The notes under the pieces were generated by a model, which did no database searches, was not told the origin of the DNA, and saw only the letters and a list, made by a program, of their open reading frames with translations. The translations under genes and the position numbers were made by a program. Below, piece after piece: positions 2,614 through 54,288 of a stretch of 64,000 nt of DNA; position 1 is the stretch's first letter; every line of letters starts with the position of its first letter. Location: assembly GCA_964434935.1 (NCBI GenBank), contig CAYSWS010000002.1, positions 8,320 to 72,319 on the forward strand, in the 5' to 3' direction. The stretch comes from an uncultured Candidatus Saccharibacteria bacterium. GTDB lineage: Bacteria; Patescibacteriota; WWE3; UBA101185; UBA10185.

Positions 2614-3750
2614 ATGAAGATGGCAATTGTTTGTGACGATCTCATACAGCACGGCGGTCACGAACATATAATCATGGAGTTTTGCCGGCTGTACCCTCAG
2701 GCCACGCTTTTTACTACCATGGCCACCAAAAAGTGGCAGACGATCTGCCGGGAAAACAAGATAGAGCTTAAGACCTCCTTCATGCAGAAGCTGCCTTTTA
2801 AGCGCAGATTAAATAGGTTTTACGCGCCTTTTCTCTTGTACATACTGGCTTTGGAGAGTTTTAGCTTTGACGATTATGACGTAGTGGTTTCTCTGACTTC
2901 GAGGTTTTCTCAAGGAGTGATAACCAAACCGGGCACCTTGCACATTTGTTATTTGAGCACGGTGGGTAGGATGTTTTGGGAACCTCAAGGGTATTTCATG
3001 CACGAAGGATTTGGCCGTTTACCGATCTTCAAAAAACTGGCCCGGACTTTTTTAAGCCTACCCCTTTCTTACATCAGGCTCTGGGACCGAACGGCTTCAC
3101 AGCGACCTGATATTTTCATCACCATTTCCAAGACCTCGCAGGAGAGGATCAGGAAATATTATCAGAGGGAAGCGCAAGTAATATACCCGCCGGTGGATAT
3201 TAGAAAGTATATTCCCGGACCGGCCACTGCCGGCGAGGATTATTTTTTAGTGGCCACCAGGCTGGCGTCGTGGAAGAGAGTGGACATAGCCATAAAAGCT
3301 TGCCTGGAGCAAAATATGAGGTTGAAGATCATGGGAGAAGGTCCGGATAAAAGCAGGTTGGAGAAACTAGCCGGCGGTTCGGATCTGATAAAATTCTTAG
3401 GTTTTGTGTCCGAAGCGGAAAAGATCTCTTATATGCAAAACTGTCAGGCCCTGATCATGACGCAGTTCGAAGATTTTGGGCTGGTGCCCATTGAGGCGGG
3501 TGCCTGTGGTAAGCCAACCATTGCCTTTGCCAAAGGTGGCGTGCTGGAAACCGTCGTAGAGGGCAGGACAGGCATGTTCTATGACGAACAGAACGAGCAT
3601 TCTCTGGGGCAGGTTTTAAAAAAGTTCGAGGCAAAAAAGTACCGGGCAGAAGATTGTCAGGCTCAGGCTAAAAAGTTCAGCTTAGAAGAATTTCAAAGCC
3701 GCATGAGCCGATCCGTATCAGACAACCTTAAAAGCTACAATGCACGTTAG
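2614..3750 (+). CDS. Glycosyltransferase family 4
   Basis: Motif EDFGLVPIEAGACGKPTIAFAKGGVLETV of the GT1 superfamily. 378 aa. Confidence 0.85.
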   Translation: MKMAIVCDDLIQHGGHEHIIMEFCRLYPQATLFTTMATKKWQTICRENKIELKTSFMQKLPFKRRLNRFYAPFLLYILALESFSFDDYDVVVSLTSRFSQGVITKPGTLHICYLSTVGRMFWEPQGYFMHEGFGRLPIFKKLARTFLSLPLSYIRLWDRTASQRPDIFITISKTSQERIRKYYQREAQVIYPPVDIRKYIPGPATAGEDYFLVATRLASWKRVDIAIKACLEQNMRLKIMGEGPDKSRLEKLAGGSDLIKFLGFVSEAEKISYMQNCQALIMTQFEDFGLVPIEAGACGKPTIAFAKGGVLETVVEGRTGMFYDEQNEHSLGQVLKKFEAKKYRAEDCQAQAKKFSLEEFQSRMSRSVSDNLKSYNAR

Positions 3751-3788
3751 CCTTGCTGTAGTGTATACTTTAATTATTAATCTCATAT

Positions 3789-4421
3789 ATGATCTATAAA
3801 GCAGGAAAAAGGATGTTCGACATTGTTGGTTCGCTGGTAGGTATTGTTTTATTTTCCCCGGTCATGTTCTTGGCCGCCCTTTGGATCAAACTCGTCTCTC
3901 CCGAAGGACCGGTCTTTGCCGATATTCCCAAAAGAGTAGGCAAGGACGGTCGAGAGTTTAATATGCTCAAATTCAGGTCCATGATTCCTAACGCTCAGAA
4001 ATGGCTTGAGGACAGACCCGAATGGCTGAAAAAATACCGCGAGAACAGTTACAAGTTGGACCCGGATCCCAGAATGATAAAAGGAGCTAAGTTCATAAGA
4101 AAGACCAGCATTGACGAAATGCCCCAATTCATAAACATCCTTTTAGGGCAAATGAGTCTGGTGGGTCCTAGGGCATACTTTCCTTTTGAACTGAGGGAAC
4201 AAATGTCGAGGTACCCGCAGACGGAAAAATATATAAAAAGGGTGCTGACCATAAAACCGGGCTTGACCGGTCCCTGGCAGGTGGGGGGCAGATCTGAGAT
4301 AGGTTTTGAAGAGAGGATCAAGATGGATGCGGAATATGCCACCAAAAGGTCATTGATCTACGACATATGCATAATAATAAAAACACCCTTGGTGGTTTTG
4401 TTGCAAAAGGGCGCAGTTTGA
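3789..4421 (+). CDS. Polyprenyl-phosphate sugar phosphotransferase (bacterial sugar transferase, WbaP/WcaJ/EpsL-like priming enzyme)
   Basis: N-terminal TM helix followed by the Bac_transf core: KRMFDIVGSLVGIVLFSP...KDGREFNMLKFRSM...PGLTGPWQVGGRSE. At 210 aa it matches the short single-domain priming transferases. Confidence 0.85.
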   Translation: MIYKAGKRMFDIVGSLVGIVLFSPVMFLAALWIKLVSPEGPVFADIPKRVGKDGREFNMLKFRSMIPNAQKWLEDRPEWLKKYRENSYKLDPDPRMIKGAKFIRKTSIDEMPQFINILLGQMSLVGPRAYFPFELREQMSRYPQTEKYIKRVLTIKPGLTGPWQVGGRSEIGFEERIKMDAEYATKRSLIYDICIIIKTPLVVLLQKGAV

Positions 4422-16522: not shown

Positions 16523-18790
16523 ATGAACAAAAAAACTGCCCCCATATTGAGATTTAATGAGGTTCGAAAGACTGACATACCATTGGTGGGAGGAAAAGGT
16601 GCCAATTTAGGAGAAATGGTTCACGCCGGCATCCCCGTGCCTGATGGTTTCATCGTTACAGCTAAGGCTTATTACGATTTTCTCAAGCTCACATCGTTAA
16701 AACAGAAGATCTTGACCGAACTTTCGGGTTTGGATGTAGATGACTCTAAAAAGCTGCAGCAAGCCTCAGAAAGAGTGAAGACCGCTATTTTAAGAGCTAA
16801 GATGCCTGACGAATTGGCGGAAAAGATCAAGAAATCCTATCACGAGCTGTGCGGTAGCCACGATAAACTGGTAGCCGTCAGGTCCTCAGCTACGGCCGAG
16901 GATCTTCCCGATGCCTCATTTGCCGGACAGCAGGAGACTTACTTGAATATTAAGGGTTGGGAACAAGTTGTTAAGAATACTCAGAAATGCTGGGCTTCGC
17001 TTTTTACTTCCAGAGCTATTTTTTATCGTACGGAAAAGGGGTTTAGCCACTTTAAGATAGGCATCGCCGTACCGGTGCAGCTCATGGTGCAGTCTGAGGT
17101 TTCGGGGATCATGTTCACGGTCAATCCCCTGACCAATAATCCCAAAGAAGTGTCCATAGAGGCAGGTTTTGGCCTTGGCCAGCCCATAGTTTCCGGTGAG
17201 ATCACGCCTGACCAGTATATCGTGAGGAAAAAGACCAAAGAAGTGTTATCCAAGGAGATCATGAAACAGACCTGGCAGTACACCATAGAAAAGAAAGTAC
17301 CCATTTCTAAAGCTCACCAGAAAAAGCAGAAGTTAAGTGATAAAAAGATTGTTGAGTTGGCTGAGATAGGCATGAAGATCGAGGAGCACTACGGACATCC
17401 CCAGGACATTGAATGGGGTATGGAGAATAACAAACTTTATATTGTGCAGTCCAGACCGGTGACCACGTTGGATTCTCTGACCAAGCAGGAAACCGTTACT
17501 ACCAAGATGGACGCTTCCAAAAAAGGCAAGAAGTTATTGGAAGGTTTAGGCGCTTCACCGGGGGCTGCTTCAGGACCGGTGCGTATAATTGGCAATCCCA
17601 ACGAGATCAACAAGGTTAAAGAGGGCGATGTTCTGGTGGCCGTTATGACCAACCCCGATTATGTGCCGGCCATGAGAAGAGCCGCCGCCATTGTGACCGA
17701 TGAAGGAGGTAGGACCAGCCATGCGGCTATTGTCTCCAGAGAGTTGGGAGTGCCGGCGGTGGTCGGTTCCGGACAAGCCACTAAAATGCTAAAAGACGGT
17801 GAGATCATCACAGTTGATGGTTCTGAAGGCTTTGTTTATGCCGGGGATCTTACCAAAGAGGTCGAGCTGGAAAAAGTCGATACCTCAAAAATGAAAACTG
17901 CCACCAAGATCTATCTTAATCTAGGCGAACCCCAGCTGGCGGTGGAGATGGCACAAAGGAACGTTGACGGTATAGGGTTACTGCGGGCAGAGTTCATGAT
18001 CGCTAACATTGGCAAGCACCCCAGGTTGTTCATCAAGGAGAAAAAGCAGAAAGAGTTCATCGAACAATTGGCTGAAGACTTGGAAACATTTGCCTCAGCC
18101 TTTGATCCCAGGCCGGTGGTCTACAGATTTACCGATTTCAGGACCAACGAGTACCGCGGCCTTAAAGGCGGCGAGGAGTTTGAGGATGTGGAAGCTAATC
18201 CTATGATAGGTTACAGAGGTGTGAGCCGCTACATAGAAGATGCAGATGTCTTTAAGCTTGAGGTTGAGGCTATTAAGATCGTGCGCAATAAGAAAGGCTA
18301 TAAAAATCTGCACGTCATGTTCCCCTTTGTACGAACTGTTGAGCAGCTGCAGGAAGTTAAAACAATTATGGCCTCATACGGTCTAAGACGAAGTGGTTCC
18401 TTCAAAGTCTGGATGATGGTGGAGGTTCCCTCCAACGTCATTTTACTGGACGACTTCATAGATGTGGGTATTGATGGTGTTTCCGTAGGTACGAATGACC
18501 TGACCATGCTCACTTTGGGGGTGGACAGGGATAATGAGCGCGTGGCCAACGTCTACAGCGAAATGAACCAAGCCATACTTAATAGCTTGGAGAAGATCAT
18601 TACCACAGCCAGAAAGAGAGGCATAACCTCATCCATTTGCGGACAAGCACCCTCGGTCTATCCTGAGCTGGTGAAGATGTTAGTGGACTGGGGCATGACC
18701 TCGGTTTCGGTAAGCCCGGACGTTATAGAAAAGACCAGAGCCATTGTCTATGAAATGGAAAAGAAAGTATTGAGCAAGCCCAAGAAATAG
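16523..18790 (+). CDS. ppsA: Phosphoenolpyruvate synthase (pyruvate, water dikinase)
   Basis: N-terminal ATP-grasp (PLVGGKGANLGEM), central phosphohistidine domain GGRTSHAAIVSRELGVPAVVG, and a C-terminal PEP-utilising TIM-barrel. 755 aa. Confidence 0.85.
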   Translation: MNKKTAPILRFNEVRKTDIPLVGGKGANLGEMVHAGIPVPDGFIVTAKAYYDFLKLTSLKQKILTELSGLDVDDSKKLQQASERVKTAILRAKMPDELAEKIKKSYHELCGSHDKLVAVRSSATAEDLPDASFAGQQETYLNIKGWEQVVKNTQKCWASLFTSRAIFYRTEKGFSHFKIGIAVPVQLMVQSEVSGIMFTVNPLTNNPKEVSIEAGFGLGQPIVSGEITPDQYIVRKKTKEVLSKEIMKQTWQYTIEKKVPISKAHQKKQKLSDKKIVELAEIGMKIEEHYGHPQDIEWGMENNKLYIVQSRPVTTLDSLTKQETVTTKMDASKKGKKLLEGLGASPGAASGPVRIIGNPNEINKVKEGDVLVAVMTNPDYVPAMRRAAAIVTDEGGRTSHAAIVSRELGVPAVVGSGQATKMLKDGEIITVDGSEGFVYAGDLTKEVELEKVDTSKMKTATKIYLNLGEPQLAVEMAQRNVDGIGLLRAEFMIANIGKHPRLFIKEKKQKEFIEQLAEDLETFASAFDPRPVVYRFTDFRTNEYRGLKGGEEFEDVEANPMIGYRGVSRYIEDADVFKLEVEAIKIVRNKKGYKNLHVMFPFVRTVEQLQEVKTIMASYGLRRSGSFKVWMMVEVPSNVILLDDFIDVGIDGVSVGTNDLTMLTLGVDRDNERVANVYSEMNQAILNSLEKIITTARKRGITSSICGQAPSVYPELVKMLVDWGMTSVSVSPDVIEKTRAIVYEMEKKVLSKPKK

Positions 18791-31403: not shown

Positions 31404-31431
31404 CTTCAGACTGCGATGTTAAAATTAGCCC

Positions 31432-32757
31432 ATGCGTGAAGACGTGATAAACAAAGTTAAGGAGTTACCTCGAGAACCGGGGGTATATTTGTTCAAGAAT
31501 TCCCAAGGCACCATTATTTACGTAGGCAAGGCCAAGAGATTAAAAAATAGGGTCTCTTCTTACTTTCAAAAAACCATTTCCCTGGAACCCAAGACCAAGG
31601 TCATGGTCAGCAAGATCAGTGATATGGAGATAATCCGCACAGCCTCGGAATTGGAGGCTCTCATCCTGGAAGCCGAACTCATAAAAAAGCACAAACCACG
31701 CTACAACATAATTTACAAGGATGATAAATCTCATCTTTATATTGTAGAAAGAAAAGATAATTTAAAAATAGGGGGTAAAGTGGTCAAACTATCAAAAGTG
31801 ATAACAGCCAGAAAAACTGACCTGAAGAAAAATGATATCAAATTCGGTCCATATACAAATAGCCGCACGACCAAACAGATACTACGTACATTAAGAAAGA
31901 TCTTTCCTTTCAGGGATTGTTCACCGGCTAAGTTTTACAGATATCAGAAGATAGACAAGCCTTGTTTATACGGCCATTTGGGTCTTTGCCCGGCACCTTG
32001 CTTATCCGGGGCTGACTTGGAAAAGAGCAAAAAAGAACTCATAAGATTGAAAAAATTCTTACGAGGTAAAAGTTCAAGCATCATCAACGAATACGAGAAG
32101 CTAATGGCAGAAGCGGCCAAGCACAAAGATTACGAGCAGGCCGCAGATTATAGGGATATGCTCAGGAGGTTCGAATATATCAGAGCCAGCTTCAAACCGG
32201 CCCAGCAATATATGGAAAATCCTAACTTGTTCCAAGACATGGCGCAAAGATCTTTACGGGAGTTGAGAGATAGTATACCTATTTTGGATAAGCTGCCCGT
32301 AAAAATAGAGTGTTATGACATTTCCAACATTTCCGGCCATGAGGCTGTCGGATCTTTAGTTGTCAGCAAGAATGGCAGTCTAAATAGTGACGAATACAAA
32401 AAGTTCAGGATCAAATTGAAGTCGGAGCCGGATGATGTGGGTATGATGGCGGAAGTGCTGTCAAGAAGATTAAAGAACAAAAAGTGGGAACTTCCGGATC
32501 TCATAGTTTTGGATGGAGGGAAGGGACAGGTGTCTGCTATAGAGGCGGTATTGAAGGATAACGGTCTCAAGATCCCGCTGGTGGGTCTAGCCAAAAGAAA
32601 AGAAACACTGATATTTTTGCAGGGTGGAGAATTTATGAAGCTTCAACTTCCAGAGGACAACGAAGGTTTAAAACTCATCATCAGATTGAGAGACGAAGCC
32701 CATCGTTTTGCTCAAAGTTATCACCATTATTTAAGACGTAAAAAAATTCAAGTATAA
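31432..32757 (+). CDS. uvrC: Excinuclease ABC subunit C (short form, 441 aa)
   Basis: GIY-YIG domain (PREPGVYLFKNSQGTIIYVGKAKRLKNRVSSYF), UVR domain (DYEQAADYRDMLRRFEYI) and RNase H-like endonuclease domain (IECYDISNISGHEAVGSLVV). It ends without an obvious C-terminal (HhH)2 region. Confidence 0.85.
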   Translation: MREDVINKVKELPREPGVYLFKNSQGTIIYVGKAKRLKNRVSSYFQKTISLEPKTKVMVSKISDMEIIRTASELEALILEAELIKKHKPRYNIIYKDDKSHLYIVERKDNLKIGGKVVKLSKVITARKTDLKKNDIKFGPYTNSRTTKQILRTLRKIFPFRDCSPAKFYRYQKIDKPCLYGHLGLCPAPCLSGADLEKSKKELIRLKKFLRGKSSSIINEYEKLMAEAAKHKDYEQAADYRDMLRRFEYIRASFKPAQQYMENPNLFQDMAQRSLRELRDSIPILDKLPVKIECYDISNISGHEAVGSLVVSKNGSLNSDEYKKFRIKLKSEPDDVGMMAEVLSRRLKNKKWELPDLIVLDGGKGQVSAIEAVLKDNGLKIPLVGLAKRKETLIFLQGGEFMKLQLPEDNEGLKLIIRLRDEAHRFAQSYHHYLRRKKIQV

Positions 32758-40267: not shown

Positions 40268-40399
40268 CTATTCCCGTAACGGCAATTAAAATATGCATAT
40301 ATAGAAATTAAATGATTTCAGTTATGTATTTCCTTTGGTGACCGCAAATGCATATTATTACCACAACTTTTAATGTAACAATGAATATTTCATTGTAAT

Positions 40400-40427
40400 T
40401 TGTAAAAATTTATGTTTCGATTAGTAT
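40400..40427 (+). promoter_or_regulatory. Candidate sigma70-type promoter for nrdJ (TTGTAA-16-TAGTAT)
   Basis: The -35-like TTGTAA at 40400-40405 and -10-like TAGTAT at 40422-40427 sit in the 258-bp AT-rich leader, about 100 nt upstream of the nrdJ ATG. Confidence 0.3.
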
Positions 40428-40525
40428 TACACTGCCCTCATATATTTTCTACGGAAAATTGACCATAAGCTAGGCCTATAGGAAAGTAGGCTAGGTGGCT
40501 TTTTTACGTCAAAAAACACTATAAA

Positions 40526-43036
40526 ATGCAAGAGAATGTTAAAACAAAACCCAAAGACACATCTGTAAATGTAAGGTTGAGAAAGATACGTGACATGGAA
40601 AGAAAGAACGAGAACATCATTTTAAGTGAGAACTCCCGAGTTATTTTGGAAAAGAGATATTTAAGAAAAAGCGAATCTGGCGAAGCAGCGGAAACCATAC
40701 CGGAAATGTTTGAGAGGGTAGCTAGGGTAGTGGCTGAACCGGATACACCTTATACGGATATTACACGCACCAAGCAGGATTTTTACAACCTACTAACCAG
40801 TAAAAGATTTTTTCCCAACTCACCGACCTTTACCGGAGCCGGCACTCCCTTAGGTCAGTTAGCAGCCTGTTTTGTACTGCCTATAAATGATGACATGGGT
40901 AAAAATTCAGACGGTATATTTTCCACCTTAAAAGATGCCGCCTTGATACAACAAGTGGGAGGAGGAAATGGTTTTTCCTTTTCGGACCTGAGATCAAAAG
41001 GTGCGGTAGTAAAAAGCAGTAACGGTAAAGCTTCCGGGCCTGTGGGCTTTATGTCGGTTTACGATAAGGCTTTTGGTGAGATAGCCCAAGGCGGTGTGCG
41101 GCGAGGCGCCAACATGGCTGTATTAAGGGTGGACCATCCTGATATAAGAGAGTTCATAGCCTGTAAATCAACTGAGGGCGATATTGCTAATTTTAATATC
41201 TCGGTAGCCCTGACCGATTCATTTATGAAAGCCGTAGTGGACGACACTAATTATGAGCTTATTGACCCCGCGAGCAAAGAAGTAATAGAAACGCCCAGGG
41301 CCAGAGAGATCTTTGATCTTATCATCGAACATGCCTACAAGAACGGTGAGCCCGGTGCTTTATTTATAGACACAGCCAACAAAGAAAACCCTGTACCCCA
41401 ACTTTACGAACTCAAGGCTACCAACCCTTGCGGTGAGCAGTGGCTGGGGCCGTATGAGAACTGCTGTTTGGGTTCGATAAATTTGGCCGAACATCTTGAT
41501 GCCGATGGCAACCTAGATTGGGAGCTTTTTCAGGAGTCTATAGAGCTTTCTACTAAATTTTTGGATAACGTAGTGACCGCCAACAAGTATGTACCAACTG
41601 TGCCTCAGCTTAGGGAGGCAGCTTTGAATGCTCGCAGGATAGGTCTCGGCTTTATGGGTTTGGCTGATGCCATGTATGCTATGGGGATCAGATATGGCAG
41701 TCAAAAAGGTCAGGAGTTTGCTGCACAGATTACGGAATTTATGAGATACCATAGTATGCTGACCTCCATTCGTTTGGCCGAAGAAAGAGGTCCATTTAGA
41801 AAGATCTCCGGTAGCATCTACGATCCGGAAGATCTGCCGTGGGAGCCCCCGGTACCCCTTTCCCCCTACGAACACGACTTTAACCGGCCCGCCATTGATT
41901 GGAACAGGGTAGTTAATGGTATAAAACAGCACGGTATCAGGAACGCCGCACAAACAACCATTGCTCCCACAGGGACCATTTCCACGGTAGCTGGTGTAGA
42001 GGGTTACGGTTGCGAACCGGTCTTCGCTCTGGCTTACTTTAGGAATGTTTATCAGGCCGCGGGAGATGAGGAAGGTCTTACGCTGACCTATACCAGCCCG
42101 AGATTTATCGAGGCTTTGGATAAGGCCGGCATTGAAGGTGAACAAAGAGAAAGAATTATAGACCAGATCATAAAAAAAGGTTCCTGTCAGGATATTGACG
42201 AATTACCGCCCGGCCTCAAAGATACCTTTGTTGTCTCAGCGGACATAGCCCCGGAAGAACACATTTTAATGCAGGCTTCCATGCAGGCGTTTATAGATAA
42301 TTCTATCTCCAAGACCTGCAATTTTCCCTCTACAGCTACCAAGGAAGATGTGGCCGAGGTTTATATGAAGGGGTGGAAATTAGGATGCAAAGGCTTAACG
42401 GTCTATGTCACCGGTAGCAGGCAGGAAGTTGTCCTGGAAACAAAAGAAACTAAAAAAGCAAAGGCGGGGAAGGCTGAGGAGGAGTTCGAACAAAAAGTGT
42501 TCTCTCAACCTGTAGTAGAGGAGGTTAAAAGTGTGGAAATGGAAGAAGCCAGAGGGTACAAATTATCAGGCACTACCTATAAGATCAACACACCTCAAGG
42601 AAAGGCTTATGTGACCATAAATAGAAGTGATAGAGGAGAACCTCTGGAAGTATTCATCAATGTGGGCAAGGCCGGGTCCGACGTGGCCGCTTTGTCTGAA
42701 GCCATGGGCAGACTGGTTTCCGGCTGGCTGCGCGCTTCCAAAAATAGAGCCTACACTGTGAAGGATATAGTCGTGCAGTTGATCGGTATTGGCGGCGCCT
42801 CATCTATCGGGTTTGGCAAGAACAGAGTAAGCTCATTGCCCGACGCTCTAGCTAAAGTATTGGCGGAAGAATTTGATATCAGAGTGAGGGCTAACGGTTC
42901 GAACGTGGTCCACGAGGACGATAATGAAGTATCTTATTTTGCCCAAGCCGATATGTGTCCTGATTGCGGAAACTCAACTTTAGTGTTGGAAGAAGGCTGC
43001 GCTAAGTGCTACACCTGCGGTTTTAGTAAATGTTAA
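40526..43036 (+). CDS. nrdJ: Class II (adenosylcobalamin-dependent) ribonucleotide reductase, no ATP-cone
   Basis: N-terminal RNR region ([14 protein letters not shown]), [15 protein letters not shown] loop, thiyl-radical/active-site cysteines NPCGEQ...[10 protein letters not shown], and a C-terminal Cys4 ribbon CPDCGN...[12 protein letters not shown]. 836 aa. Confidence 0.9.
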
Positions 43037-43042
43037 GGGCAT

Positions 43043-45181
43043 ATGAATTTCAAGATCAAGAAGTTAAACGGAAATATTGAATTATTCCAAGCAGAGAAAA
43101 TATCAAATAGTGTTTTTTTGGCCGCCCAAAATGTAGGGGGAACAGATAAGGAACTGGCCAAAGAATTAAGCTGGCAGATAGTTGATATTTTAGAAAAGGA
43201 ATTCAAAGATAAGAGGTTCATTACTACCTTGGAGATAGGCAATATCGTGGAAAAAGTTCTCATCGAAAACGGACACGCCAGTACGGCCAAAGCCTTCATC
43301 CTCTACAGAGAGAATAAGAAGCACGCACATCAGGATAAGGATTCGCTGGGTATAAAAGATGATATAGGCCTGTCTTACAACACTTTATACATTCTCAAAC
43401 AGCGCTACCTGAAAAGAAAAGATACCGGGGAGATAGAGGAAACTCCGGCGGGTATGATACACCGCGTGGCAAAATTTCTCTCCGCTGTGGAAAAAGGTCA
43501 AAGAAAGCAAGCCAAATGGTACAAAGAGTTCAAAAACATCATGATGTCCTTTGATTTCTTACCCGGTTCCAGAACTTTAGCCAATGCCGGAAAGAACGCA
43601 CCTCAGCTGGCCAATTGTTTTGTCTGGCCGGTTGAGGATGACATAAACTCCATTTTTAATATCTTACACAAATCGACCTTGATCAAAAAGAATGGTGGCG
43701 GCTGCGGTTATAATTTTTCGCAGGTCAGGCCCGAAGGGGATATTGTGAACGGAATACCGGAACTGGCGGCCGGACCGGTCAAAATGATCGAAATGTTCAA
43801 TCTCATGACTTCACTTTTTAAGCAGGAAGGAAAATATGAAAGCGGTAACATGGCTATTTTAAATGCCGACCACCCCGACATTTTTAATTTTATCTCGGCT
43901 AAAAAGGATGATGGATATTTATCTAAGACGAATATTTCCGTGGGCGTCACCAACAAGTTCATGAAAGCTGCTTTAGAAGGTAAGGAGTGGGACCTTATTA
44001 ATCCCAGAACTAAAAAAGTCGTGAACACAGTCAATGCCAAATCTATTCTGGACCTCATGGCAAATTTAGCCTGGCAGACAGGCGACCCGGGCCTTATTAA
44101 TCTCTCGGCTATAAACAAAGGCACAGCCCTGGCAAATCCTCTCAAGAAGAAAAGAGGGGATATTATAACTACCAACCCTTGCGGAGAGGTCCCGCTATAT
44201 CCGTATGAGTCATGCAATTTGGGTTATGTTAATTTTGTTAATTTTGTTCGTGAGGGAAAATTTGATCTGGAAAGACTGGCTAAAGTCATCAGTGTGGCTG
44301 TGAGGTTAATGGACAATGTTATTGAGGCCTCATGGTTCCCAGTCGAAGAGGTGCAAAAGGCTGTGCATGAGCATAGAAGAATAGGTATTGGGGCAGTTGG
44401 CTGGGCAGAGGCTTTAGCTGAGCTGGAAATTTCCTATGATTCCCCGCAAGCCGTCAGGTTGGCTAAGAAAGTTACCAAAACCATGTACGAACACGCTTTT
44501 AACGCTTCCTGTTCTCTAGCTGAAGAAAAAGGGCCGTTCCCGCTGGTCAAGGATTCTATCTGGGCTGGAAAAAAGCACCAGCCCAGGAATGTAGCCCTGC
44601 TCACATTCCCTCCTAGCTCCAGCAACGCCGTCATCTGTGACACCACCTTTGGTATTGAGCCTTATTTTGCCTTGGCCTACGAGCAGAATGTATTAGAAGG
44701 TATGCGACTGAGGACCGTAGCCCCCGTCTTTATAAAAAAACTCAAACAGAGGGGTATTTATACGGACAAGTTGATACAAAAAGTAATTGATAATCATGGC
44801 AGTGCTCAGGGCATCAAAGAAATACCTCAGGATCTGCAAGTCATCTTCAAGGTAGCTCACGATATATCTTGGCGAGATCACATTAAAATGCAGGCTGCTT
44901 TCCAAACTTATACCGACAACGCAATTACCAAGACCATAAACATGCCCACAGAGACCACACCTAGTGAGATCAGGGAAGCCTTCATCTTAGCTTGGCAGCG
45001 GGGTTGTAAAGGTCTGACGGTATACAGGGATAGAACCAAATCAAATCAGGTGTTCGAATTTGGCAGTTCGCAGAGTTATAGGCCAGCCTTTACTATGTGC
45101 CCCAACTGCGATATACCGTTGGAAAAAGACAACAAATGCTATAAATGCGCCAGATGCGGTTTCAGCACTTGCGAACTGTAG
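43043..45181 (+). CDS. nrdJ: Class II ribonucleotide reductase paralog with N-terminal ATP-cone
   Basis: ATP-cone (residues 1-90: KIKKLNGNIELFQAEKISNSV...), KNGGGCGYNFSQVRPEG loop, TNPCGEVPLYPYESCNLGYVNF active site, and C-terminal CPNCD...CYKCARCGFSTC ribbon. 712 aa. Confidence 0.9.
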   Translation: MNFKIKKLNGNIELFQAEKISNSVFLAAQNVGGTDKELAKELSWQIVDILEKEFKDKRFITTLEIGNIVEKVLIENGHASTAKAFILYRENKKHAHQDKDSLGIKDDIGLSYNTLYILKQRYLKRKDTGEIEETPAGMIHRVAKFLSAVEKGQRKQAKWYKEFKNIMMSFDFLPGSRTLANAGKNAPQLANCFVWPVEDDINSIFNILHKSTLIKKNGGGCGYNFSQVRPEGDIVNGIPELAAGPVKMIEMFNLMTSLFKQEGKYESGNMAILNADHPDIFNFISAKKDDGYLSKTNISVGVTNKFMKAALEGKEWDLINPRTKKVVNTVNAKSILDLMANLAWQTGDPGLINLSAINKGTALANPLKKKRGDIITTNPCGEVPLYPYESCNLGYVNFVNFVREGKFDLERLAKVISVAVRLMDNVIEASWFPVEEVQKAVHEHRRIGIGAVGWAEALAELEISYDSPQAVRLAKKVTKTMYEHAFNASCSLAEEKGPFPLVKDSIWAGKKHQPRNVALLTFPPSSSNAVICDTTFGIEPYFALAYEQNVLEGMRLRTVAPVFIKKLKQRGIYTDKLIQKVIDNHGSAQGIKEIPQDLQVIFKVAHDISWRDHIKMQAAFQTYTDNAITKTINMPTETTPSEIREAFILAWQRGCKGLTVYRDRTKSNQVFEFGSSQSYRPAFTMCPNCDIPLEKDNKCYKCARCGFSTCEL

Positions 45182-45183
45182 CC

Positions 45184-45278
45184 AAATAGCTTATTTTCGA
45201 AGAAATACCTTATTTTCGAAGAAATACCTTATTTTCGAAGAAATAGCTAATTTTCGAAGAAATACCTAATTTTCTTTA
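45184..45278 (+). repeat. Tandem direct repeat: 5 copies of a 19-bp unit AAATACCTTATTTTCGAAG (4 near-perfect, 1 degenerate)
   Basis: Units occupy 45184-45202, 45203-45221, 45222-45240, 45241-45259 and 45260-45278. Each contains the palindrome TTCGAA. The array fills the whole nrdJ2-pduO intergenic space. Confidence 0.95.
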
Positions 45279-45283
45279 GTTAC

Positions 45284-45820
45284 ATGCCAATATATACAAA
45301 ACAGGGCGATAAGGGTGAAACCAACCTGAATAGTTCGACTCTTAAAAAAAGCCATCCCTTGTTGGACCTCATCGGTAACATCGATGAGCTGAATTCCTCA
45401 TTAGGGTTGCTGCATGCTATAAGAAATAAGAAAATAAGAGCTTTGGTCGAGGATTTGCAAAATGACCTATTTTCCTTAGGAGCCAAATTATCAGGTGCGA
45501 AAATAGATCTCAACTATTCTTCCAGGACAAATGATATCGAGCATGCTATCGATGAGTTGTCACTTTCTCTGCCCAAACTGTCCAACTTTATAATTCCCGG
45601 AGGCTCAAAGTTTGCTGCTCAGCTGCAGCTTTCACGGGCTGTGGCCAGAAGAACGGAAAGGAGTGCCGTCGCCTTGATGGAAAAAGGAGTTCTTAAAGAC
45701 AGTGAGGGAGAGGGCCTGATCACGTATCTGAACCGTTTATCTGATTTATTGTTTGTCATGGCGCGATATGTTAATTTTAAACTTGGTATAAAAGACACTA
45801 TTTGGCCTAAAAAAAGATGA
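45284..45820 (+). CDS. ATP:cob(I)alamin adenosyltransferase, PduO type
   Basis: N-terminal signature IYTKQGDKGETNLNSSTLKKSHPLLDLIGNIDELNSSLG matches the YTKTGDxGxT...GxIDEL motif of the PduO/MMAB family. 178 aa. Confidence 0.85.
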   Translation: MPIYTKQGDKGETNLNSSTLKKSHPLLDLIGNIDELNSSLGLLHAIRNKKIRALVEDLQNDLFSLGAKLSGAKIDLNYSSRTNDIEHAIDELSLSLPKLSNFIIPGGSKFAAQLQLSRAVARRTERSAVALMEKGVLKDSEGEGLITYLNRLSDLLFVMARYVNFKLGIKDTIWPKKR

Positions 45821-45963
45821 ACAAATTTTATTACTTATTATTAATGTCTCTGGTTGTTATAGGCATTGTCGTGGCAGGTGTACTAGCAAAAAGGGCTGAC
45901 CAAACGGATAGATTTTTTGAATATCAGAAATCCCAAAGTGGAAAAAACTATGAGGGAAACTAA
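45817..45963 (+). CDS. Possible 48-aa single-TM micro-protein (MNKFYYLLLMSLVVIGIVVAGVLAKRADQTDRFFEYQKSQSGKNYEGN)
   Basis: The ATG overlaps the pduO TGA (ATGA coupling) and is followed by one hydrophobic helix. It is below the 60-aa cutoff of the ORF track and has no homology support. Confidence 0.3.
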   Translation: MNKFYYLLLMSLVVIGIVVAGVLAKRADQTDRFFEYQKSQSGKNYEGN

Positions 45964-45983
45964 TTTTTTGTTATAGTACCAGC

Positions 45984-48851
45984 ATGTTTAAAGTACCGGA
46001 AAGAAAGAGCATCCCCCAAATAGAGGAAAAGATACTTAAATTTTGGCAGGAAAATAAGATCTTCGAAAAATCCGTCAAAAGCAGACCTGGATCCCAGCTT
46101 TACGTTTTCTATGACGGACCCCCGTTCATATCAGGCCTTCCCCATTATGGACATTTATTAAGTTCCATTGCCAAGGATATTATTCCCCGATATTGGACCA
46201 TGAAAGGGAAAAGAGTAGAAAGAGTCTGGGGTTGGGATGCGCATGGATTAACTGTAGAGAACAGCGTACAAAAAATTTTAGGCATAAAAAGCAGACGTGA
46301 TATAGAAGGTTACGGTTTAGAGAAATTCATAAAAGAATGTTATAAGTACACTTCCGAAACTTCAGAAGAATGGGTCTGGTACATAGATAAAATAGCTCGC
46401 TGGGTGGATATGGAGCATGCCTACAAAACTACGGACAAAGATTATATGGAGTCGGTCATCTGGGCCTTTAAGCAGCTTTATGACAAGGGCCACATTTACG
46501 AAGGTGTCTATACCTCACTTTTCTGTACCACTTGCGGCACTCCGGTCTCCAACTTTGAGATCGCCATGGACAACACCTATAAAGATGCGGAGGATCCCTC
46601 GATCATTGTAAAATTTGAGGTTTTGACGCCGGGTAAATTCAAAGGAGACTACATTTTGGCCTGGACTACTACTCCCTGGACCATGCCTTCCAACAGAGGT
46701 TTGGTAGTCGATAAAAAGGAAACTTATGTGAAGGCAGTCAGCCAGGGAGAAACTTATATTGTGGCTAAAAAGCTGGCAGACAGCGTGTTCTCCGGCAGAC
46801 CTTTTGCTATTAAAGCAGAGTTTTTGGGGGAAGAGCTTTTAGGTTTGGAATATCAACCGCCTTATGAATTTTTTACCAAGAATTTGGCTGATTTCAAAGT
46901 TTATGAGTATGAAGGCATGGTGAGTATGGAGGAGGGCACAGGCATTGTTCATTCGGCGCCCGGTTTTGGGGAAATTGATACGCAGATGGGCTATCACTAC
47001 GGTTTGCGTATCATGCTCAGTCTGGATGATGAGGGGAAATTTATAGCTGGAGATACGGGTAAGAATCCCTATGAAGGTATGTTCTATGCCCAAGCTAATG
47101 AACTCATAAATAAAGATCTCAAAGATCGTGGACTGATGTTTTACAGCGGTACCATCATGCACAGGTTTCCCTACCACGATAGGTGTGACACCTGGCTCAT
47201 ACAGAAGGCTCAAAATTCATGGTTTGTGAACATACAAAATCTTAAGGCCAAAATGCTTGAATATAATGAGAATATAAATTGGGTGCCCGAACATTTGAAA
47301 CATGGGCGTTTCCAGCATGTCATAGAAAATGCTCCCGACTGGTGTATATCCAGGTCAAGATTTTGGGGAGCTCCCATGCCCGTGTGGCGCGCTCCGGACG
47401 GGGAAACCATTGTCATCGGCTCTATTGCCGAGTTGGAAGAGTTATCAGGCGAAGAAGTAAAAGATCTGCACCGTCCTTATATTGACGACATCACCATAAA
47501 AAAAGATGGCAAGATCTTTACCAGGATATCTGAAGTGTTGGATTCCTGGTTCGAGGCCGGCTCCATGCCCTACGCTCAGCTCCACTATCCTTTTGAGAAC
47601 CAGGAGAAATTCGACAAGAATTTCCCCGGGGACTACATCATCGAATACATTGCCCAAGTCAGAGCTTGGTTCAATATGATGCACAGGCTTTCCACCGCCT
47701 TATTTGAGTCTAATTCTTTCAAGAATGTCATTTCCACCGGGGTCATGGCGGGAAACGACGGCAGAAAAATGAGCAAGACCTACAAGAACTTCACCGATCC
47801 TAAAGAGGTGTTGGAGACTATAGGCGGGGATGCATTGAGGCTGTACCTCATGAACTCACCTTTGATGGTGGGGGAAAACGCCAACTTTGATCTCATCGAA
47901 CTTAAGAATAAATCGAGAAATGTACTCAACCCCTTATTAAACAGTCTTAAATTCTTTTTGATCTACGCAAACTTGCATAATTGGCATCCAAAAGATATAA
48001 AAAAAGAGCCTGAAGGTGAACATGTATTGGATAAGTGGATCCTGACCAGACTGCACCAGGTCACAAGGGACTTTACGGTAAATATTGAGAAGTACTATGT
48101 ACCTCAAGCCATACAGCCTTTGGAAGATTTTGTCGATGATCTTTCCCGCTGGTATGTGAGGCGCTCCCGGGACAGGATCTCCGACAATGAGGGCAATGTG
48201 ATGGAGGTTTTTTACCACGTACTGGTGACATTTTCTAAGGTCTGTGCTCCGGTGACGCCTTTTTTGGCGGAAGAAATATATCAGCAATTGAAATTACCTC
48301 ATGACTTTGAAGAAAGTGTTCATCTGGAAACCTACCCACAGTATGATGAGGGCATCATCAGCCAGCATGAAGAGCTGTTGATGTTCATGCAGCAAGCTAG
48401 GGATATGGTCAGCGCCGCTTTATCGATCAGGGTAAATAACAAGATCCCCGTGAGGCAGCCCCTGGAAAGCTTGATCACCACCGAAAAATACAAACTACCC
48501 GAAGAGTACCTGACCATTATCAAGGATGAGACCAATATCAAGGACATCATATTCAAGAATGATCTGGAAGATCTGCCGGAAAATAGTAAAGATCAGCAGC
48601 AGATGGTAGCTCTCAACATAAATATCAGTGCCGAACTTAAGAAAGAAGGCTTACTCAGAGATATCATCAGAAGATTCCAGGACGAAAGGAAGAAAAATAA
48701 ATTAAGAGTAAATGACAGGATCATAGCTACCTATCCGGACCAAAAAGATATAAAAGAGGTTGTGCATAGTTTTGAGAGTGAACTTAAAGAAAAGATCTTG
48801 GCAGACAAATTGATATCCGGCAAAGATTATGCCGTTGAACTATCTGAATAA
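45984..48851 (+). CDS. ileS: Isoleucine--tRNA ligase, type 2 (eukaryote-like)
   Basis: Class I motifs PPFISGLPHYGH (HYGH variant typical of type-2 IleRS) and KMSKT; CP1 editing domain. 955 aa. Confidence 0.9.
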   Translation: MFKVPERKSIPQIEEKILKFWQENKIFEKSVKSRPGSQLYVFYDGPPFISGLPHYGHLLSSIAKDIIPRYWTMKGKRVERVWGWDAHGLTVENSVQKILGIKSRRDIEGYGLEKFIKECYKYTSETSEEWVWYIDKIARWVDMEHAYKTTDKDYMESVIWAFKQLYDKGHIYEGVYTSLFCTTCGTPVSNFEIAMDNTYKDAEDPSIIVKFEVLTPGKFKGDYILAWTTTPWTMPSNRGLVVDKKETYVKAVSQGETYIVAKKLADSVFSGRPFAIKAEFLGEELLGLEYQPPYEFFTKNLADFKVYEYEGMVSMEEGTGIVHSAPGFGEIDTQMGYHYGLRIMLSLDDEGKFIAGDTGKNPYEGMFYAQANELINKDLKDRGLMFYSGTIMHRFPYHDRCDTWLIQKAQNSWFVNIQNLKAKMLEYNENINWVPEHLKHGRFQHVIENAPDWCISRSRFWGAPMPVWRAPDGETIVIGSIAELEELSGEEVKDLHRPYIDDITIKKDGKIFTRISEVLDSWFEAGSMPYAQLHYPFENQEKFDKNFPGDYIIEYIAQVRAWFNMMHRLSTALFESNSFKNVISTGVMAGNDGRKMSKTYKNFTDPKEVLETIGGDALRLYLMNSPLMVGENANFDLIELKNKSRNVLNPLLNSLKFFLIYANLHNWHPKDIKKEPEGEHVLDKWILTRLHQVTRDFTVNIEKYYVPQAIQPLEDFVDDLSRWYVRRSRDRISDNEGNVMEVFYHVLVTFSKVCAPVTPFLAEEIYQQLKLPHDFEESVHLETYPQYDEGIISQHEELLMFMQQARDMVSAALSIRVNNKIPVRQPLESLITTEKYKLPEEYLTIIKDETNIKDIIFKNDLEDLPENSKDQQQMVALNINISAELKKEGLLRDIIRRFQDERKKNKLRVNDRIIATYPDQKDIKEVVHSFESELKEKILADKLISGKDYAVELSE

Positions 48852-52971: not shown

Positions 52972-54288
52972 TTAATCAATGAACTCCTGCTGCAGCAGGC
53001 TCCACAGCTCAGCATAACCTCCGTCATAGCCCAGCGCCCATATACCCACTCCAGCCAGGTCCAGGTCATTGATCATGTCATATTTAACCTTCAGAGAATC
53101 CACATCGTCATAGAACACCTCACGCACAGAGCCTGTTTCCGGGCTTATATATGTGAAATAAGGTGTTTTTGCCAGATCATCCCACTTCACGTCAGGTTTT
53201 ACTGTAAGAACAGTCTCCATAATGGCTTCATAAGTTTGGGATTGAGAATATCCCGAATCATCACTGCCGCTTATGCGCTTGGCGTATTTGTCATCTCTTT
53301 CCACTACCCAGTTGTAGCCGTAGTAAGGTACTCCCAAAACGATCTTATTAGGTGGAACATAAGCTAGATAATCGTGCATCATGGTGCCCAGGTCGTATTC
53401 TGCATGAACACCTTTGCCGCCAATGGGAGAGACCGGTCCGGCTGTATCGGAAGAAGGACGGTGAAAATCATAGCCCATGATAAATATAAGATCAGCGGCT
53501 TTTCCCAGACCCTCGATATCAGTTATCCGGTCCTTGACCACGGAATCGGCAAAGGTTGAAACGGTCAAGGTTGAATCCCCGATGGTTTCGTCCAGTTTCT
53601 TGTTCAAAAAGTCAACAAATTCGGTGTATTGGCGAGCCTTTTCCTTGGGCGTATATTGCACATACTCAAAATTCAAATTCACATCCTTGATGTCTTTTTC
53701 GATAAGCTCGTTAATGATGTTGTTGGAAAGGTTAAGCCAGCACTCCCGACAATCGAGGAATTTATCGGAAACATCATCCACGTGTGAGATGATGGTCAGC
53801 GCAAAATTCACATTGTGCTTTTTAGCTTCAGCTATAATATCGGTAAGCTCTTTACTGTTCTTCCATTGATTGTAACCGGGTACCGTTTCTCCATTCTGGT
53901 ATTTAAGAAAATCACCGTTGGCATCGATGTAAAGCCCAAAATAAGCGATATCGGTCAGTTTATCGTATTGGAAATATTTAGCTTCTTCTAACGTCCAATA
54001 AGGTAAATAACCGTAAATTATTTTTTTGGGCGGTTCCCGCACATTGTTAAAAGACAAAATACTAAAGGAGCTACCCATAGGGGAAAGGATCTTAAGCTCG
54101 GGGTTTCTTTTATTTACAATGCGATCCAAACTAAAGAACGCTCCGGATAAAAGTACCAACACCAAAGATGCGACCATGGCAGTTTTAATCTTCACAAAAC
54201 TCATTTTACTTGAATTTATGCACTTTATGAAGATGTCGCGGCAAATGATAGAATATCCTTGTGCATAAAAGGCTTGTCTTGTATTCAA
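52972..54288 (-). CDS. Glycoside hydrolase family 18-like secreted protein (chitinase/YaaH-like fold); probable start at 54204 (MSFVKIK... signal peptide)
   Basis: Signal peptide/TM helix, a GH18-type motif ending in the catalytic Glu (KDVNLNFEY is a DxxNxNxE variant), and the C-terminal W-rich segment GVGIWALGYDGGY typical of GH18 barrels. Confidence 0.65.
   Translation of the reverse strand: MNTRQAFYAQGYSIICRDIFIKCINSSKMSFVKIKTAMVASLVLVLLSGAFFSLDRIVNKRNPELKILSPMGSSFSILSFNNVREPPKKIIYGYLPYWTLEEAKYFQYDKLTDIAYFGLYIDANGDFLKYQNGETVPGYNQWKNSKELTDIIAEAKKHNVNFALTIISHVDDVSDKFLDCRECWLNLSNNIINELIEKDIKDVNLNFEYVQYTPKEKARQYTEFVDFLNKKLDETIGDSTLTVSTFADSVVKDRITDIEGLGKAADLIFIMGYDFHRPSSDTAGPVSPIGGKGVHAEYDLGTMMHDYLAYVPPNKIVLGVPYYGYNWVVERDDKYAKRISGSDDSGYSQSQTYEAIMETVLTVKPDVKWDDLAKTPYFTYISPETGSVREVFYDDVDSLKVKYDMINDLDLAGVGIWALGYDGGYAELWSLLQQEFID

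Follow-up and report, generated by a model that had tools for sequence, protein, structure and literature searches.

A 19-bp tandem array between nrdJ2 and pduO in a Patescibacteria genome, probably a young, species-specific minisatellite

In the 64,000-nucleotide stretch of contig CAYSWS010000002.1 analysed here (the window), the gap between nrdJ2, which encodes an adenosylcobalamin (AdoCbl)-dependent ribonucleotide reductase (RNR), and pduO, which encodes an ATP:cob(I)alamin adenosyltransferase, is filled by a head-to-tail array of five 19-bp units. This raises the question of whether the array serves the expression of its neighbours as DNA, RNA or protein-binding site, or is a repeat without sequence-specific function. 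An earlier note, made from the sequence alone, had proposed an iteron-like protein-binding array or a structured spacer tuning the coupling of the two genes, next to a copy-number-variable locus. We consider it probable, though by no means certain, that the array is a young, species-specific minisatellite, i.e., a variable-number tandem repeat (VNTR), which was generated by slippage and is neutral or at most modulates pduO expression.

The array, its copy number and its lineage

Tandem Repeats Finder (TRF) analysis of the window placed the array at 45184-45274 with a period of 19, 4.8 copies, 94% matches, no indels and a score of 154, in the place given by the earlier note; a repeat search showed the units to be in register. 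The next-best tandem array of the window scored 44, and in 94 kb of related loci the best other score was ≤74, apart from the copy of the array in contig L001 (see below); for the DNA examined, the remark on the rarity of these arrays thus holds. A search with the 19-mer at ≤3 mismatches gave four matches in the window, all of them in the array, where shuffled sequence led to an expectation of 0.08. Head-to-tail units in the 10-100-bp range occurring well above chance, which characterise a minisatellite, were accordingly found by both TRF and shuffling.

Read from the sequence, the units are, from 5' to 3', AAATAGCTTATTTTCGAAG, AAATACCTTATTTTCGAAG, AAATACCTTATTTTCGAAG, AAATAGCTAATTTTCGAAG and AAATACCTAATTTTCTTTA(G), with a unit identity of 89-100% and a composition of 74% A+T. 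They vary at two positions (6: C/G; 9: T/A), and all four combinations are present, as is expected after repeated slippage or unequal exchange between units. The two identical adjacent units form a perfect 38-bp direct repeat, which is likely a slippage hotspot. The palindrome TTCGAA had been ascribed to every unit; it was found in four of the five, the fourth unit being the last to carry it, and the degenerate fifth has TTTTCTTTAG instead. The array contains no ATG, GTG or TTG, and the unit length is not a multiple of three. Within the 102-nt gap the order is TAG stop codon (45179-45181), CC, array, GTTAC and ATG; the distance of 5 nt to the start codon had been given correctly, and that to the stop codon is to be corrected to 2 nt.

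Some possible origins and roles of the unit were tried and rejected. A 13-of-14 match to nrdJ2 (TCAAAGAAATACCT at 44814), beyond which the similarity stops, was judged to be due to chance, as was an imperfect complementarity, with one 9-nt seed, to GAAAATAAGAGCTTTGG in pduO (45430) and to a similar 14-mer in ileS. An open reading frame (ORF) at 45060-45269 (69 amino acids, TTG start) extends across the array in a different frame; it shares sequence with the well-supported C-terminus of nrdJ2 and gained no support. Avoidance of TTCGAA as a restriction site was dismissed on the finding of 34 sites where 20 were expected.

Look-ups with the exact proteins of pduO, nrdJ2 and the 48-amino-acid ORF that follows pduO returned seven further contigs; of these, L001 alone crosses the whole array, and L002 alone extends into it. 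L001, a Joint Genome Institute (JGI) contig from another sample that encodes an identical PduO, shows two single-nucleotide polymorphisms (SNPs) relative to the window over an alignment of 1346 nt, an identity of 99.85% when one gap is left aside. This gap measures exactly 19 nt and falls at the identical central pair; L001 has four units where the window has five, and the variants at positions 6 and 9 follow in the same order in both. L002, a Logan contig with one SNP relative to the window, breaks off within the array, 38 nt beyond the stop codon. That the array exists is secure, since these three assemblies are distinguishable by their SNPs, and a one-unit polymorphism in copy number is likely; as far as the assemblies show, the locus would be copy-number variable, as had been supposed, or at least ambiguous in assembly.

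The exact copy number is less secure than the array itself. As worked out from the units, no k-mer of up to ~37 nt distinguishes the four-copy from the five-copy allele. An assembly with k=31, which we take to be the setting used by Logan, must therefore break in the array, and a small-k assembler could collapse a unit. That the array or its length had arisen from short-read mis-assembly would fit the differing unit counts of two assemblies, the termination of a k=31-type assembly within the array and the seemingly low coverage of the population, many of whose contigs measure 1-2 kb. Yet three SNP-distinct assemblies from different runs or samples all begin the array directly behind one and the same stop codon, two continue across it as far as pduO, and the identical variant order in the two spanning assemblies confines the doubt to the count of the identical central unit. 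An invention of the array by assembly, which the earlier note had raised against itself, is hardly credible. Among the other contigs, window position 45402 is the common start of L013 (JGI) and L014 (Logan), and 46892 is the common end of L015 (Logan) and L016 (JGI); L013-L015 and L001 have in common an A-to-C SNP at 46151. These common contig ends and the SNP pattern suggest low coverage and several co-existing strains in the samples.

Among the species representatives of GTDB, the nearest nrdJ2 sequences are 69-75% identical and mostly come from metagenome-assembled genomes (MAGs) of Candidatus Woesebacteria, members of the candidate phyla radiation (CPR)/Patescibacteria; the window is thus assigned to a CPR bacterium of the Woesebacteria. 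Only two recorded contigs encode the exact PduO protein, the next-best homologue is 62% identical, and the species therefore stands isolated in current databases. In all nine related loci an RNR gene is followed by pduO in the same order, directly so in seven, and the array was found in none of the nine. Absence from, or lack of conservation in, close relatives had been named by the earlier note itself as a ground for refutation, and as regards its functional readings this is the case here.

The four nearest loci (L009-L012; pduO 57-62% identical) share the gene order RNR-pduO-48-amino-acid ORF-ileS, with RNR-pduO gaps of 13, 25, 23 and 23 nt, respectively, of unrelated sequence. More distant Woesebacteria have gaps of 8 nt (L006), 15 nt (L003) and 58 nt (L007). 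In the alignment of the junction (A1), the array is a pure insertion; minus four units, the spacer measures 26 nt, like that of the relatives, and CCTAAT of the window lies opposite TATAAT of L010 at an equal distance from the ATG. Conserved flanks around a sequence that is not conserved beyond the species, as found here, are typical of a VNTR. Judged by these comparisons, the array appears to be a lineage-specific expansion of a 19-bp spacer piece, and the nrdJ2-pduO junction is evolutionarily plastic, with the array as one lineage's version of it. The 19-mer motif was absent from the remaining window and from the searched loci of other species. A pattern search with TTTTCGAAGAAATASCTWATTTTC gave no match in a metagenome collection of 241 million records or in IMG/VR viral contigs; the metagenome negative is weak, that collection also being without L001, a known carrier of the array.

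Other insertions were seen in this region of the relatives. In L004 (6140-6375), a small hydrophobic membrane ORF is inserted between nrdJ2 and pduO. In L005 (6122-6975), the junction consists of ~430 nt of noncoding sequence with other repeats, namely arrays of GATATTAAG-like 8-9-mers on either side of a GC-rich segment, followed by a 124-amino-acid ORF that presumably resembles the four-helix-bundle proteins of rRNA intervening sequences. No Rfam match was obtained for this junction, and the insert looks like a small inserted element. The nrdJ2 match of L006 (4001-6400) spans 2400 nt, compared with the usual ~2130 nt, which suggests an insertion within that gene.

Expression of pduO and the alternative readings

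The course of events that we propose starts from an ancestral nrdJ2-pduO spacer of ~25 nt, of which a 19-bp piece would have been tandemly duplicated. Slippage during replication, or unequal recombination, would since have lengthened and shortened the array, the identical central pair being the easiest site, and the array would have no sequence-specific function of its own, its effect being positional. The gap would have been stretched four-fold from ~25 nt, to 102 nt with five copies and 83 nt with four, and this lengthening rules out stop/start coupling or the minimal spacing seen between other genes of this genome. As the array also occupies the place at which several relatives have an extended -10 box giving a leaderless pduO mRNA, pduO would most likely be expressed by read-through from nrdJ1-nrdJ2; no terminator was predicted between the nrdJ genes and pduO. 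Initiation would be independent of a Shine-Dalgarno (SD) sequence, on an A/U-rich, weakly structured leader, to which a TAATTT hexamer 11 nt upstream may add.

The start sites of the genome were surveyed in 60-nt stretches upstream of 53 likely genes, a -10 box being defined as TAnnnT with at least 4/6 matches to TATAAT. Such a box was found exactly 6 nt upstream of 15 of the 53 gene starts, compared with 1.4% of all ATGs of the window, and every other distance between box and start was represented by 0-4 genes. The box often has the extended form TGnTAnAAT (e.g., 283-299, 31417-31434 and 54246-54263), and SD sequences are visible at two or three of the genes only. This implies that most transcription units of this genome begin as leaderless mRNAs. 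The literature consulted contained nothing specific on leaderless translation in CPR/Patescibacteria or Woesebacteria. At ileS, the arrangement of box, spacer and ATG is kept nearly base for base in four relatives. A clear -10 box lies 5-6 nt before the pduO ATG in L003, L004 and L007, and TGnTTAAAT 6 nt before it in L011 and L012; by this pattern, the clade's pduO would often have a leaderless promoter of its own. In the window, TAATTT, which aligns with the TATAAT of L010 in A1, would be a weak -10 box at best. A consensus scan of both strands revealed neither a sigma-70-like promoter nor an intrinsic terminator in the array. The earlier note had seen no room for a promoter; the local promoter type needs only ~15 nt, so that room would suffice, and it is the element that is absent.

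These features bear on the idea that the array is a promoter tandem repeat, in which each unit would supply a weak -10-like box (TATTTT/TAATTT), the last one driving a pduO mRNA with a short leader. The A/T-rich upstream units would act like an UP element or as extra weak promoters, and copy number would tune or phase-vary pduO. The genome does use compact -10-only promoters, with the best box 10-12 nt from the start in ~9 of the 53 genes; a TAnnnT hexamer is present in every unit, the distance from the array to the ATG is 5 nt in a genome with leaderless starts, and the position of CCTAAT/TAATTT opposite the L010 box would allow the unit to descend from a promoter. The boxes of L003, L004 and L007 would further imply that pduO is normally transcribed independently, the unit count appears to differ between strains, and there is a precedent in Mycobacterium tuberculosis (PMC12817950). 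However, the eight TAnnnT hexamers of the array reach only 3-4/6 matches, none has the TG extension common in local promoters, and ~1.5 per 100 nt are expected anyway (background ~1.5% of positions), so that no unit holds a promoter element better than background. The positionally homologous CCTAAT lacks T1 and A2 of the box, the consensus scan was empty, and 19 bp are too short for a -35/-10 pair. We regard this explanation as unlikely, albeit the main rival. It is quite unlikely that the array is a contingency locus of an ultra-small, uncultivated CPR bacterium, in which slippage-driven changes in the number of 19-bp units tune or switch pduO relative to both B12-dependent reductases; if this were true, subpopulations would differ in the conversion of scavenged B12 to AdoCbl, amounting to a phase-variable cofactor supply for DNA-precursor synthesis.

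At the RNA level, an array domain closed by a helix between stop and start regions could let the terminating ribosome unmask, or be handed to, the pduO start, or, in a variant, the U-rich repeats could recruit ribosomes without an SD sequence. In both the minimum free energy (MFE) and the centroid fold, the 151-nt transcript forms register-shifted A-U-rich hairpins closed by a 6-bp helix, in which UGUAGC of the stop region pairs with GUUACA before the AUG. The array is 74% A+U, and, with SD sequences being rare in the genome, a non-SD mechanism is needed for a start 102 nt past the stop. Against this stands a folding energy of -25 kcal/mol, compared with -18.7 ± 3.2 for shuffles (z = -1.95), which was equalled by 4/200 shuffles, and an MFE frequency of 0.005; the helix includes a G-U pair and, for such short windows, is near chance expectation. 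The modelled unpaired probability around the AUG was 0.52-0.65 for one to five units, without a trend, so that accessibility would not depend on copy number. Searches at the Rfam gathering score found no family at the array or the cluster, the cobalamin riboswitch included, and at E ≤ 5 gave one 15-bit chance match against a threshold of 290 bits. Since the relatives have unrelated sequences of 8-58 nt or larger unrelated insertions instead of a homologous array, there is no support from covariation; neither a known family nor a covarying structure, which would mark a structured cis-regulatory RNA, was thus found, and nothing is conserved. The spacer proposed earlier as tuning the coupling of the two genes is, on this evidence, distinctly improbable. 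A protein could, alternatively, bind the unit, with TTCGAA inside an imperfect ATTTTCGAAGAAAT palindrome, cooperatively at four or five sites and regulate pduO or nrdJ2, or serve replication or partition. The array does contain four direct repeats that are almost the same and have a palindrome at their core, and ATTTTCGAAGAAAT at ≤2 mismatches is over-represented in the window, although solely through the array itself: the other matches, with 2 mismatches, lie inside ORFs away from the nrd cluster and are within the chance range (4 vs 1.3 expected). The cluster holds no candidate regulator gene, and the motif is in no relative despite the conserved gene cluster. The 19-bp spacing, although within the 17-22 bp of iterons, corresponds to 1.8 helical turns, which by geometry would rotate each unit by ~70 degrees and put successive sites on different faces of the helix. 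Neither a rep gene nor origin features were found adjacent to the array; the cumulative GC skew rises monotonically across the window, and the DnaA-like boxes closest to the array lie at 43486 and 46760, with none within ~1.5 kb. The NrdR box is reportedly a 16-bp palindrome upstream of nrd genes; at ≤3 mismatches, its consensus ACACWATATATWGTGT gave one chance-level match in the window, at 17432, and none in the array or near the nrd cluster, the array moreover lying downstream of the nrd genes. An operator or iteron-like array, the other function proposed in the earlier note, is very unlikely.

Several points weigh against a young and neutral minisatellite. The closest relatives in the databases are 62% (pduO) and 75% (nrdJ2) identical, so that "young" is loosely bounded, and well-kept units are compatible with recent origin or else with homogenisation or selection. 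A species-specific role is compatible with non-conservation, and the search for further copies within the same genome covered 64 kb. The difference between four and five units could be a collapse, the spanning assemblies numbering two. If pduO supplies AdoCbl to two reductases, an uncompensated loss of both coupling and leaderless promoter would be costly, and such a cost hints that the array or its last unit supplies some expression signal.

The pduO step is metabolically telling: B12 synthesis is beyond these organisms, and their only ribonucleotide reductases depend on the adenosylation of cobalamin that has been scavenged. If the minisatellite is neutral, it is a possible strain marker for this Woesebacteria population and a warning that short-read or k-mer assemblies break or collapse at the array. 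If its copy number affects pduO, it would represent a rare case of repeat-mediated expression variation in a CPR bacterium.

The gene cluster and the nrdJ1 leader

The array lies in a neighbourhood of ftsA, ftsZ, two nrdJ genes, pduO, ileS and ftsW, in which nrdJ1 is the first gene of the nrdJ1-nrdJ2-pduO cluster; coordinates are given in the table below. The names used before for nrdJ2 and pduO stand, both proteins scoring above the cut-offs of their NCBIfam models (400 bits for TIGR02504). The Pfam match of PduO begins at residue 3, and its ATG is therefore the start. The two nrdJ genes are tandem class II paralogues, 6 nt apart; nrdJ1 has no ATP-cone, and the C-terminus of nrdJ2 is Cys-rich. 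The pair is kept in L010-L012 and in more distant Woesebacteria, L009 having nrdJ1 only. The 48-amino-acid ORF (MNKFYYLLLMSLVVIGIVVAGVLAKRADQ...) overlaps the pduO stop codon (ATGA) and has one predicted hydrophobic helix. In L009-L012, an ORF of similar length (46-48 amino acids) is found in the same place; neither Pfam nor NCBIfam contained a matching family.

The 258-nt spacer between ftsZ and nrdJ1 is 78% identical among the window, L009 (230-479) and L008, a WWE3 MAG (3660-3925), and is thus more conserved than the nrdJ1 protein (72-74% of amino acids). Its conserved blocks are TATTCCCGTAACGGCAA, the palindrome ACAATGAATATTTCATTGT and TACACTGCCC; a conserved hairpin, CTAGGCCTATAG..TAGGCTnGGTGG, is followed by T6 and lies ~20 nt before the nrdJ1 ATG. 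No Rfam match was obtained for the spacer even at E ≤ 5, and it contains no NrdR box. A shorter version of the core was found after ftsZ in metagenome contig L108 (1356-1463). When metagenomes were scanned with an 18-base gapped leader pattern, 92 stretches were retrieved, of which an nhmmer profile recognised only L108, the rest being chance matches. From its sequence, the spacer looks like a candidate for an undescribed regulatory leader or attenuator of B12-dependent RNR genes. Such a leader would be unusual in a genome otherwise favouring leaderless mRNAs and may deserve more attention than the tandem repeat.

Table. Positions of the array, its parts and the neighbouring features in the window.
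Feature	Position	Strand	Description and basis
19-bp tandem array	45184..45278	+	Five head-to-tail units; sequence reading, TRF, in-register repeat search
Units of the array	Starts at 45184, 45203, 45222, 45241; degenerate fifth unit 45260-45278/9	+
Perfect 38-bp direct repeat	45203..45240	+	Identical central pair of units; L001 is one unit shorter here
TAATTT	45267..45272	+	Only TAnnnT near the pduO start; 11 nt before ATG; 3/6 TATAAT matches; no upstream TG
ftsZ-nrdJ1 spacer	40268-40525		Conserved between relatives; candidate leader
nrdJ1	40526..43036	+	Class II ribonucleotide reductase, C-terminal TSCPD domain; TIGR02504, 643 bits
nrdJ2	43043..45181	+	Adenosylcobalamin-dependent ribonucleotide reductase, N-terminal ATP-cone; TIGR02504 NrdJ_Z, 580 bits
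pduO	45284..45820	+	PduO-type ATP:cob(I)alamin adenosyltransferase, 178 amino acids; PF01923, TIGR00636 PduO_Nterm above cut-off
48-amino-acid ORF	45817-45963
ileS extended -10 box	45969..45983 (to 45986 including ATG)	+	TGTTATAGT, then ACCAGC, then ATG; leaderless arrangement

Comparison with known repeat systems

Plasmid iterons resemble the array in consisting of A/T-rich direct repeats of 17-22 bp, here in four or five copies. The array differs from them in having no rep gene, plasmid or origin context, in its 19-bp rather than ~22-bp phasing and in its chromosomal position between metabolic genes. With the contingency loci of Haemophilus and Neisseria it has in common that a slippage-prone repeat upstream of a gene could alter expression (PMC12721329). 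In those loci, units of 1-7 nt are present in many copies, switch at high rates and lie near defined promoter elements, whereas the array has a 19-bp unit in four to five copies and no flanking promoter elements.

The units of mycobacterial interspersed repetitive units (MIRUs) reportedly measure ~40-100 bp. Like the MIRU-VNTR loci, the array is arranged head-to-tail and intergenic, lies between co-oriented and probably co-transcribed genes, apparently varies in count between strains and has no demonstrated function. Most MIRUs lie between genes and are believed to be transcribed as parts of operons (PMC3635867). They form a dispersed family with ~40 loci, whereas the array is a single locus in the DNA examined, both the 19-mer and its 14-mer core occurring only at this locus within the window. 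In some MIRUs, small ORFs overlap the stop codon on one side and the start codon on the other, which a 19-bp unit with no start codon does not provide.

At dop, lpdA-glpD2 and cysG-efpA of M. tuberculosis, promoter tandem repeats of 54-58 bp are located by leaderless promoters and differ in count between near-isogenic strains, and at lpdA, extra repeat copies raise expression (PMC12817950). The likeness to the array extends to their end a few to a few tens of bp upstream of the gene, their occurrence in a leaderless-rich organism and their tendency to collapse in short-read assemblies (PMC12817950). The M. tuberculosis units, however, hold a whole promoter, and in the 19-bp unit no promoter of the local type can be recognised. 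We conclude that the array belongs to neither the MIRU nor the M. tuberculosis promoter-repeat family, the two named kinds closest to it, and is best regarded as an ordinary bacterial intergenic minisatellite.

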